Origin: Kiritimatiellia bacterium | GTDB taxonomy: Bacteria; Verrucomicrobiota; Kiritimatiellia; RFP12; DVOR01 | NCBI GenBank assembly: GCA_900771325.1 | Contig: CAAGNN010000052.1 | Span: forward strand, 5,155-69,154 | Length of the DNA: 64,000 nucleotides | Direction: 5' to 3' | Shown: one piece after another, positions 49,524-50,600 of the stretch | Position numbering within the stretch: position 1 is the stretch's first letter | How the letters are laid out: each line of letters opens with the position of its first letter | The notes under the pieces: generated by a model | Told to the model about the DNA's origin: nothing | The model's database searches: none | What the model saw: only the letters and a program-made list of their open reading frames with translations | Made by a program: the position numbers and the translations under genes

Positions 49524-49560
49524 AAGTGCTTGCATTTGGCGCGTGGGGGTGCTACACTAT
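49524..49560 (+). promoter_or_regulatory. sigma70-type promoter (TTGCAT-N18-TACACT), near-identical to the tRNA-Asp promoter
   Basis: gaaaaaagtgcttgcatttggcgcgtgggggtgctacact vs 55831-55870 gaaaaaagtgcttgcattgggggcgggtgtgtgctacact. Confidence 0.6.
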
Positions 49561-49565
49561 GCGGC

Positions 49566-49712
49566 GTTCTTTGGGAGTTGTGGCACGACCCTCGCCGTTT
49601 CCACCCCATTCCCACCAGCGGCTCGGTCGTCTGAGTACCCCCACGCGAGACCCGCTCCCAAAGAACCTAATTTGCGCCTCCTACCGCAAGGTGGGAGGCG
49701 TTTTTTGTGTCT
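49566..49712 (+). ncRNA. candidate about 147-nt structured small RNA or cis-acting leader of the fumarate-hydratase gene
   Basis: Bounded by the promoter above and an intrinsic terminator. A 12-bp closing helix gttctttgggag (49566-77) / ctcccaaagaac (49655-66) encloses about 77 nt. No ORF. Confidence 0.45.
49676..49712 (+). terminator. intrinsic (rho-independent) terminator
   Basis: cgcctcctacc-gcaa-ggtgggaggcg followed by ttttttgtgt. Confidence 0.75.
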
Positions 49713-49745
49713 GGGCCCGGGCGGATGTGGTATAGTAAGGGTGCT

Positions 49746-50600
49746 ATGGACATTGTAGAGCAGTTGTTGGAGTTGGTTCGGCGCGCGGCGTGCGAGCTGC
49801 CGGCGGATGTTGCCGAGGCGCTGGCGGCGGCCAAGGCGCGCGAAGCGGCCGAGGGCGCGCAGGGGATCCTGGGGACGCTGTGCCGGAATTGCGCCTTGGC
49901 GGCCGAGCAGTCGACCCCGATGTGCCAGGATACCGGCACGTTGACCTTCTTCTGGCGGGTTCCGGCGGGTTCGGCGCAGGGGCCGTTGGTGGCGGCGGCG
50001 AACGAGGCGGTGCGGCGGGCGACGGCGCGGGGGTGGCTGCGGAAGAATACGATCGAGGCGCTCTCCGGGCGGTCGGTCGATGACAATGTGGCCGAGCACA
50101 TTCCGGTGCACCACTTCGAGGAGGCGGCGGTGGAGGCGCCCGAGGTGACGCTGCTCTTGAAGGGCGGGGGGAGCGAGAATATGAGCTGCCAGTATTCGCT
50201 GCCGGATGCGCGGTTGGGCGCGGGGCGCGATTTGGCCGGGGTGCGCGCGTGCGTGCTCGATGCCGTGGCGCGGATTCAGGGGCAGGGGTGCGCGCCGGGG
50301 ATTTTGGGGGTGTGCATTGGGGGCGACCGCGCGGAGGGCTACGCGATGGCCAAGCGCCAGCTGCTACGGCCGTTGGGCGAGGCCTCGCCGGTGGCCGAGC
50401 TCGCGGCACTGGAGGCGCGGCTCTTGGACGAGGCGAACAGCTTGGGGATTGGGCCGATGGGGCTGGGGGGGCGGACGACGCTCCTGGGGGTGAAGGCGTG
50501 CGCGCTGACGCGGCTGCCGGCCTCCTTCTTCGTGACGATTGCCTATTGTTGCTGGGCGTGCCGGCGGCAGACGTGCCGTCTGGCGGTGGACCCGGCGTAA
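49746..50600 (+). CDS. class-I fumarate hydratase / L(+)-tartrate dehydratase family, alpha (N-terminal catalytic) subunit
   Basis: …STPMCQDTGTLTFF… is the Fe-S hydro-lyase signature Cys motif. 284 aa. No beta-subunit gene follows (nadB is next). TGTGGTATAGT -10-like element 8 nt upstream of the AAGGG RBS. Confidence 0.8.
   Translation: MDIVEQLLELVRRAACELPADVAEALAAAKAREAAEGAQGILGTLCRNCALAAEQSTPMCQDTGTLTFFWRVPAGSAQGPLVAAANEAVRRATARGWLRKNTIEALSGRSVDDNVAEHIPVHHFEEAAVEAPEVTLLLKGGGSENMSCQYSLPDARLGAGRDLAGVRACVLDAVARIQGQGCAPGILGVCIGGDRAEGYAMAKRQLLRPLGEASPVAELAALEARLLDEANSLGIGPMGLGGRTTLLGVKACALTRLPASFFVTIAYCCWACRRQTCRLAVDPA

Follow-up and report, generated by a model that had tools for sequence, protein, structure and literature searches.

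A candidate small RNA gene with a tRNA-type promoter upstream of fumA in a Kiritimatiellia bacterium

A 64,000 nt stretch of contig CAAGNN010000052.1 (assembly GCA_900771325.1), from a Kiritimatiellia bacterium and called here the window, carries a promoter, a structured RNA and an intrinsic terminator immediately upstream of fumA, a gene for a class I (Fe-S) fumarate hydratase. This RNA unit matches no known family and, judged from comparison of related sequences, is a real and well-bounded candidate small RNA gene. Its boundaries and its independence from fumA transcription were shown in silico, and it is very probably a functional RNA gene in its own right rather than a leader of fumA. The explanation we prefer is that of an independent small RNA gene acting by base-pairing through exposed C-rich tracts, a statement which, taken whole, has a probability of about 0.45; the pairing mechanism by itself is tentative and, if anything, slightly less probable.

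The RNA unit and its promoter

The features of the unit are listed below, in window coordinates; structural elements refer to the minimum free energy (MFE) structure unless otherwise indicated.

49520–49525, + strand: A6 tract, UP-element-like, immediately 5′ of the −35 (read from the sequence)
49530–49535, + strand: −35 hexamer TTGCAT, the same as the −35 of tRNA-Asp
49550–49558, + strand: extended −10, TGc plus TACACT, with a 17 nt spacer after the −35
49564–49706, + strand: predicted primary transcript, about 141–143 nt (start placed from the −10 spacing and the onset of conservation at 49561)
49566–49583, + strand: 5′ strand of the closing helix, P1 at 49566–49578 and its extension at 49579–49583 (MFE and centroid structures)
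49585–49630, + strand: internal hairpin P2, stems 49585–90/49625–30 and 49594–99/49617–22
49600–49616, + strand: apical loop of P2, UCCACCCCAUUCCCACC, 17 nt and C-rich, unpaired probability 1.0
49631–49653, + strand: 3′ C-rich, mostly unpaired stretch, CUGAGUACCC-CCACG-CGAGACCC (predicted fold)
49654–49666, + strand: 3′ strand of closing helix P1, pairing with 49566–49578
49667–49673, + strand: A/U-rich, single-stranded linker CUAAUUU, 5′ of the terminator, unpaired probability 0.82, invariant across lineages
49674–49706, + strand: intrinsic terminator with a 12 bp stem, GNRA loop and U6 tail (terminator scan)

An earlier note on this DNA had claimed that the promoter is nearly identical to that of the tRNA-Asp gene (55830–55869), and this was borne out. 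In the block that spans the A-tract and the −35 (GAAAAAAGTGCTTGCATT) the two agree at 18 of 18 positions, and they have all 10 bases of GTGCTACACT in common. By BLAST, a 44 nt segment with 86% identity, which is the tRNA-Asp promoter, is the sole other match to the RNA unit in the window, and the 13-mer AAAGTGCTTGCAT occurs exactly twice in the 64 kb, once in each promoter. A G+C-rich discriminator lies 3′ of the −10 of the RNA unit. With its A-tract, TTGCAT, 17 nt spacer, TGnTAnnnT and discriminator, this would be a strong sigma-70 promoter of the stable RNA (tRNA) type, starting transcription at about 49564–49566; transcription would stop at the intrinsic terminator, at about 49706, to give a product of about 143 nt. 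The discrete promoter–terminator unit proposed earlier is retained, but its length of about 147 nt is corrected to about 141–143 nt (49564/66 to about 49706).

The similarity to the tRNA-Asp unit extends to its 3′ side. The tRNA-Asp gene is directly followed by TTTTTTGTGT (55966–55975), and an identical 10-mer lies at 49701–49710, after the terminator of the small RNA. A second strong terminator (AAACCGCGTGCC...GGCACGCGGTTTTTTTTT, 55999–56040) lies a further 35 nt downstream. The small RNA unit may have been derived from a re-used cassette of tRNA-type promoter plus tail.

The 5′ end of the RNA had been described as pairing perfectly with a 3′ segment, and it does so: GTTCTTTGGGAG (49566–49577) and CTCCCAAAGAAC (49655–49666) form a perfect 12 bp helix. 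In the MFE and centroid structures, P1 consists of 12 Watson–Crick pairs plus one G-U pair, and the extension at 49579–49583 pairs with 49641–49645, bringing the closing stem of the predicted product to 18 bp. The predicted fold of the body is this stem plus a bulged hairpin, whose flanking unpaired region is one-sided, with 1 nt 5′ and 10 nt 3′ of the hairpin; the stretches 49631–40 and 49646–53 have mean unpaired probabilities of 0.87 and 0.78. The MFE of the whole unit is −63 kcal/mol (z = −5.75 against shuffles) and that of the 103 nt body alone is −38 kcal/mol (z = −3.7 against shuffles). Perfect 12 bp inverted repeats within 100 nt are frequent in the window (25 versus 1.2 in shuffles); most of them belong to dispersed repeat families, while the closing helix of the small RNA is unique in the window, and so is the RNA body as a whole, which by BLAST is not a repeat.

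The terminator scan gave a stem of 12 pairs at 49674–49701 with a GCAA loop, and a T-run at 49701–49706. By sequence, the order AAUUU (49669–73), hairpin and U6 matches the 3′ module of Hfq-dependent small RNAs (sRNAs). The textbook terminator reported in the earlier note is present, although it ends about 39 nt, and not 34 nt, before the fumA ATG. As all of the promoter, helix and terminator features described there were found, the original observation is confirmed with small corrections of coordinates.

Conservation and distribution

The neighbourhoods of fumA were retrieved from four lineages of the 90% FumA cluster (window/L142, L086, L140/141 and L130–139), and the RNA unit is present in all four. 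Members of this cluster carry the NCBI names Candidatus Spyradenecus sp. or Lentisphaeraceae, remoter relatives are labelled Kiritimatiellae, and identical FumA proteins are present in human-gut metagenome contigs. Within the RNA-bearing clade, FumA identity is at least 92%.

In the three lineages that are readable upstream, the DNA 5′ of the promoter is mutually unrelated: the window has a methyltransferase gene and repeats there, L130 has a thioredoxin-like gene and L140 a third sequence, and homology between lineages begins exactly at GGCG-A6-GTGCTTGCAT. Despite the unrelated DNA further upstream, the A6 tract is retained in the L140 lineage and as A7–8 in the L130 lineage. The −35 TTGCAT is invariant in all readable lineages (window/L142, L140/141 and L130–137). 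The −10 occurs as TACACT, TATCAT or TATTAT across the three lineages, always with T1, A2, T6 and the upstream TG, while 7 of the 17 spacer bases differ and position 49560 is variable (T, G or C). Because the −35 is fixed, the consensus bases of the −10 are kept, the spacer drifts and homology starts at the promoter itself, this conservation pattern across unrelated contexts identifies the promoter in silico as real.

The body is far more constrained. Between the window and the L130 and L140 lineages there are no changes among its 113 positions (49561–49673), and L086 shows a single change, C49593T, within the predicted internal loop at 49591–93. For fumA, the sequences compared show 91 differences in 855 nt and 60 in the 285 third codon positions (21%), so that the difference between body and gene is significant by Fisher's test for third positions (p = 4e-10) as well as for all coding positions (p = 1e-5). 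With 0–1 changes in 113 positions against 21% at fumA third positions, neutral evolution is excluded, and the RNA body is, by this comparison, under strong purifying selection and conserved far above neutral sites.

The terminator stem behaves differently, with 4–5 changes in 28 nt between lineages. Three of its pairs vary and all are still paired (A-U/G-C, U-G/U-A and C-G/U-G), and its loop is GCAA, GAAA or GUAA, always of the GNRA type; pairing kept through variation supports a functional terminator. The earlier note had looked to homologous regions for covariation; in the body, 30 of 30 pairs are invariant among lineages and, since the body never varies, the internal fold is without covariation support. 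Taken together, this pattern of variation is the sequence signature of a functional promoter and a functional terminator with a strongly constrained RNA between them, and it favours the suggestion, also made earlier, of a stable small RNA.

Rfam gave no credible match, whether for the whole window at gathering thresholds or for 801 nt and 161 nt searched at E ≤ 10. The families covered include 6S, 6S-Flavo, SRP, Y RNA, RNase P, tmRNA, 5S, RsaE, 6C, Acido-Lenti-1 and all riboswitches, so the Infernal/Rfam check proposed in the earlier note (6S, SRP and riboswitches) returned no match even at E ≤ 10. The top match, to Burkholderia ncS037, reached 22.9 bits, where the gathering score is 112, with an alignment made up mostly of the terminator, and was rejected. 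The NAD+-I (nadA) motif was considered because of the nadB-like gene downstream and an ACANCCCC-like bulge; it had no Rfam match and the sequence did not fit. Retron, omega-RNA and bridge-RNA ideas were also dropped, no reverse transcriptase, TnpB or IS110 being found by Pfam among the flanking genes scanned.

Searches with nhmmer and BLAST against 85 and then 44 loci found homologues only within the same clade. A weak nhmmer match (L014:2857-3020) did not resemble a homologue on inspection. A covariance model (R1) run against 583 kb of related loci gave chance matches only (best 18 bits, E = 0.2), and all 34 matches of a pattern scan of JGI metagenomes were low-complexity, C-rich chance matches. 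There were no matches in a scan of viral contigs or by BLAST against plasmids and phages, and none of the four translated RNA frames matched a predicted protein, so that no spuriously called open reading frames (ORFs) were found. No relative with a FumA identity of 85% or less has the RNA upstream of fumA, L087, L088, L091, L092 and L095 included, and it was not found in 80 genome loci searched. As far as these tools reach, the RNA gene appears confined to one genus-level clade, the scan of the genome collection having been queried with the FumA protein and not with the RNA.

In the literature searched, no paper was found on small RNAs, regulatory or structural, from Kiritimatiellota or gut Lentisphaerota. 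The unit would be a well-delimited candidate for that group, with promoter, boundaries and purifying selection defined; its practical impact is modest given the narrow clade.

Mode of action and rival explanations

In the explanation we prefer, the product would consist of the 18 bp closing stem, a hairpin with an exposed, C-rich 17 nt loop, a second exposed C-rich stretch (GUACCCCCAC), the AAUUU linker, and the terminator hairpin with its U6 tail. The RNA would act in trans, its exposed C-rich tracts pairing with G-rich sites in mRNAs, such as ribosome-binding regions, and a scaffold formed by the closing stem and terminator would stabilise it. Exposed C-rich motifs are present in the predicted fold, in the P2 loop and in GUACCC..CGAGACCC (unpaired probability 0.78–0.87), and Shine-Dalgarno sequences of the GGAG/GAGG type occur at many genes in the window.

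There are precedents for such a mechanism. In staphylococcal RsaE, unpaired C-rich motifs in loops (UCCC/CCCC) pair with mRNAs of central metabolism and the TCA cycle at their ribosome-binding sites (PMC2790875, PMC6158497), and the Rsa RNAs offer a precedent for unpaired C-rich motifs as seeds (PMC2790875). RsaE/RoxS and the other Rsa RNAs resemble the RNA described here in being stand-alone genes of about 100 nt plus an intrinsic terminator. However, RsaE belongs to Firmicutes, whereas this RNA comes from another phylum and a high-GC genome and has no sequence or structure match to RF01820; its promoter is of the tRNA type, that of RsaE stress- or redox-regulated. The long 5′/3′ closing helix is not known from RsaE. 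In 6C RNA of high-GC bacteria, C-rich hairpin loops act as seeds independently of a chaperone (PMC6486639). The 6C RNA (Actinobacteria, RF01066) shares with the present one a high-GC organism, but it is built of two hairpins that both carry a C-rich loop, in place of one hairpin loop and one C-rich strand inside a closing helix, and the RNA has no Rfam match to it.

Several observations weigh against base-pairing. A duplex target scan, which covered the 64 kb window only, gave no outlier at a start codon, and the best sites lay inside coding regions. The loops lack a CCUCC anti-Shine-Dalgarno core. With so many G-rich sites in a genome of 67% G+C, C-rich loops would be poor discriminators of targets, a point that has been made for the opposite case of AT-rich genomes (PMC9410917). 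A stress-responsive regulator would not usually have a promoter of the tRNA type, which is presumably constitutive. Homologues were found in one narrow clade only, and the body fold is without covariation support. Finally, the stems of the body show no substitutions against 4–5 in 28 nt of the terminator stem; a scaffold alone would not need so much constraint on sequence, which a protein-bound RNA would explain at least as well.

A protein-binding or structural RNA, made at the levels of a stable RNA as a ribonucleoprotein (RNP) component or protein sponge whose partner reads both sequence and fold, is a serious rival because the stems are invariant in sequence and the promoter is of the tRNA type, even though we consider it unlikely. 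All 113 body positions, including the 60 paired bases, are invariant next to a terminator stem that has changed, the promoter is close to that of tRNA-Asp and has a G+C-rich discriminator, and the window yielded no convincing mRNA target. On the other hand, SRP, 6S, Y RNA, RNase P, tmRNA and 5S gave no Rfam match at E ≤ 10. A likeness to 5S rRNA (CCACCC..CAUUCC, CCCCAYGCGAGA) proved to be at chance level (z = 0.6–1.6) in local alignments to three 5S sequences. The very narrow distribution would be unusual for a housekeeping RNP, and there is no conserved linked partner gene, the upstream neighbours differing between lineages. The more specific proposal of a new RNA class, abundant in gut Lentisphaerota/Kiritimatiellota, expressed from a tRNA-type promoter in the style of growth-rate control and constrained in sequence from end to end as part of an RNP or as a protein sponge, is a doubtful one and a little less probable again.

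The relation of the RNA to fumA turns on how fumA itself is transcribed. The relevant features are:

49728–49736, + strand: extended −10 of fumA itself, TGgTATAGT, an element of the neighbouring gene, 9 nt 5′ of the ATG, with 0/9 changes among lineages
49746–50600, + strand: fumA, class I fumarate hydratase, alpha-type (Pfam Fumerase, E = 6e-70)
50613–52238, + strand: nadB/frdA-like flavoprotein gene (FAD_binding_2, E = 7e-93)

In 15 lineages the start codon of fumA has a TGnTAnnnT motif 6–9 nt 5′ of it; 10 of these lineages lack the RNA (L006, L007, L017, L021, L022, L087, L088, L091, L092 and L095), and most of these RNA-lacking lineages also lack a Shine-Dalgarno sequence at the fumA start. 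Further upstream, the in-frame ATG at 49725 reads ATA in L130 and so is not conserved. With its own extended −10 so close to the start codon in 15 lineages, the fumA mRNA is predicted to be leaderless or nearly so, and to be transcribed from its own promoter. TGnTAnnnT is also found 6–10 nt 5′ of ATG candidates inside the ORFs 2951–4039 (− strand) and 25629–26222 (+ strand), so that several genes of this organism may be expressed from leaderless mRNAs.

The earlier note had offered, as an alternative to a small RNA, a terminator-type riboregulator or leader for fumA. In a leader of this kind, a ligand or factor acting on the body would control read-through of the terminator into fumA-nadB. The order of promoter, structured RNA and terminator ahead of the ATG would suit such a leader, as would the junction between RNA and fumA, which is retained in four lineages though the DNA upstream has been replaced. 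Likewise, a promoter, a P1-closed domain, an intrinsic terminator and a gene in line recall terminator-type riboswitches and attenuators. In the window sequence there is, in addition, a possible 6 nt alternative pairing of UGGGAG (5′ strand of P1) with CUCCUA (5′ arm of the terminator). However, fumA has a promoter of its own between the terminator and its start codon, which leaves essentially no 5′ UTR, and it is not associated with the RNA outside the clade. The 5′ arm of the terminator changes from CCUCCUACC to CCUCUUGCC between lineages while the body is fixed, which weakens the sole candidate antiterminator pairing, so that no conserved antiterminator is left. No riboswitch family matches, and the promoter is of the stable RNA type. 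A leader is accordingly very improbable. A riboswitch for an Fe-S fumarase would be notable if true, and the evidence is against it; a promoter–RNA–terminator unit in front of a gene tempts one to read a riboswitch, a misreading that is corrected where the gene is leaderless and has its own extended −10.

The position next to fumA also invites comparison with IsrR and, by function, with the iron-sparing sRNAs RyhB and FsrA. In E. coli, RyhB represses fumA. The staphylococcal IsrR has three C-rich regions and acts as a repressor of mRNAs for Fe-S enzymes (PMC9410917). Like IsrR, the RNA unit described here has single-stranded C-rich regions and a terminator, and it adjoins a class I (Fe-S) fumarase gene. 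It shows no homology to them, and no Fur-box-like sequence was seen on reading its promoter. Adjacency to fumA is its sole link to Fe-S enzymes, and fumA, being leaderless, would offer no Shine-Dalgarno target.

A non-functional by-product, in which a duplicated tRNA-type promoter, chance sequence and a terminator insulating fumA had come together, or a gene for a small protein, is more remote still. The promoter block and the 3′ tail are common to the tRNA-Asp unit, dispersed repeats abound in the surrounding intergenic DNA and two + strand frames are open across the RNA. Against this, the near-absence of change in the body excludes neutrality, and the body is unique in the window. The open frames extend through the terminator and match no predicted protein, and the one ATG nearby (49559), directly adjoining the −10, reads AGG in L140 and ACG in L130 and is thus not conserved.

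Least probable is a 6S-like RNA, which would sequester RNA polymerase as a mimic of an open promoter; a 6S-like closing helix with an internal bubble had been named in the earlier note as one possibility. A long helix of 5′ and 3′ regions with internal unpaired bases is present in this non-coding RNA, and 14 nt at 49634-47 are complementary in the window to the spacer of its own promoter (49540-53), but there is no match to the 6S (RF00013) or 6S-Flavo models, the 103 nt body is short beside the roughly 150–200 nt of known 6S RNAs, the unpaired region is one-sided around a bulged hairpin and not a two-sided central bubble, the terminator hairpin lies outside the closing helix, and the spacer complementarity, rejected as a functional feature, is lost in the other lineages, where the spacer has changed.

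Neighbouring genes and repeats

In the window, the RNA unit is preceded by a gene for a TRAM-domain RNA methyltransferase and then a repeat-rich spacer of 945 nt. Downstream, fumA is followed after 12 nt by the nadB/frdA-like flavoprotein gene instead of a fumarase beta gene (Fumerase_C), a pairing kept in all relatives examined. In L091 (85% FumA identity), positions 1–75 upstream of fumA hold, in place of the small RNA, another hairpin (AACCCGGGCGGG...CCCGCCCGGGTT) and heptamer arrays.

The spacer contains about nine tandem copies of a 22–23 nt AT-rich unit, ATAATTCAATTAA plus CCCnnnGGG, each with a small palindrome (49178–49376). A second copy of the array lies 30 kb away at 19455–19718 (− strand; 88% identical over 265 nt) and a weaker one at 34420–34515. 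Both tandem arrays are within about 200 nt upstream of promoter-like sequence, and they could be arrays of binding sites or a REP/MITE-like element.

A 131 nt direct repeat, 86% identical, occupies 48870–49000 and 49376–49506. It is composed of heptamer arrays (GATAGAC three times, GCTAACC four times) around a G+C-rich hairpin, and partial copies are found at 34327–34382, 59380–59485, 32105–32140 and 55201–55245. Similar heptamer arrays (GCTCACC, TGTCATC) lie 5′ of the tRNA-Asp promoter, and these too have counterparts upstream of fumA in L091; such modules look like a general feature of the intergenic DNA of this clade.

Located 210 nt downstream of the methyltransferase gene is a 34 bp imperfect hairpin (88% complementary, 49008–49099) followed by GTTTTACATTTTTG, with a T-rich tail to 49115. 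One of its arms has an exact inverted copy of 34 nt at 55616–55649, upstream of tRNA-Asp. The hairpin may represent a terminator, a repeat element or a further small RNA. A dispersed palindromic element with (A)CCCGCCCCGGGT occurs at 3998–4064, 34539–34617, 40973–41076, 55402–55459 and about 19410–19470. Copies of it make up many of the window's 25 perfect inverted repeats of at least 12 bp.

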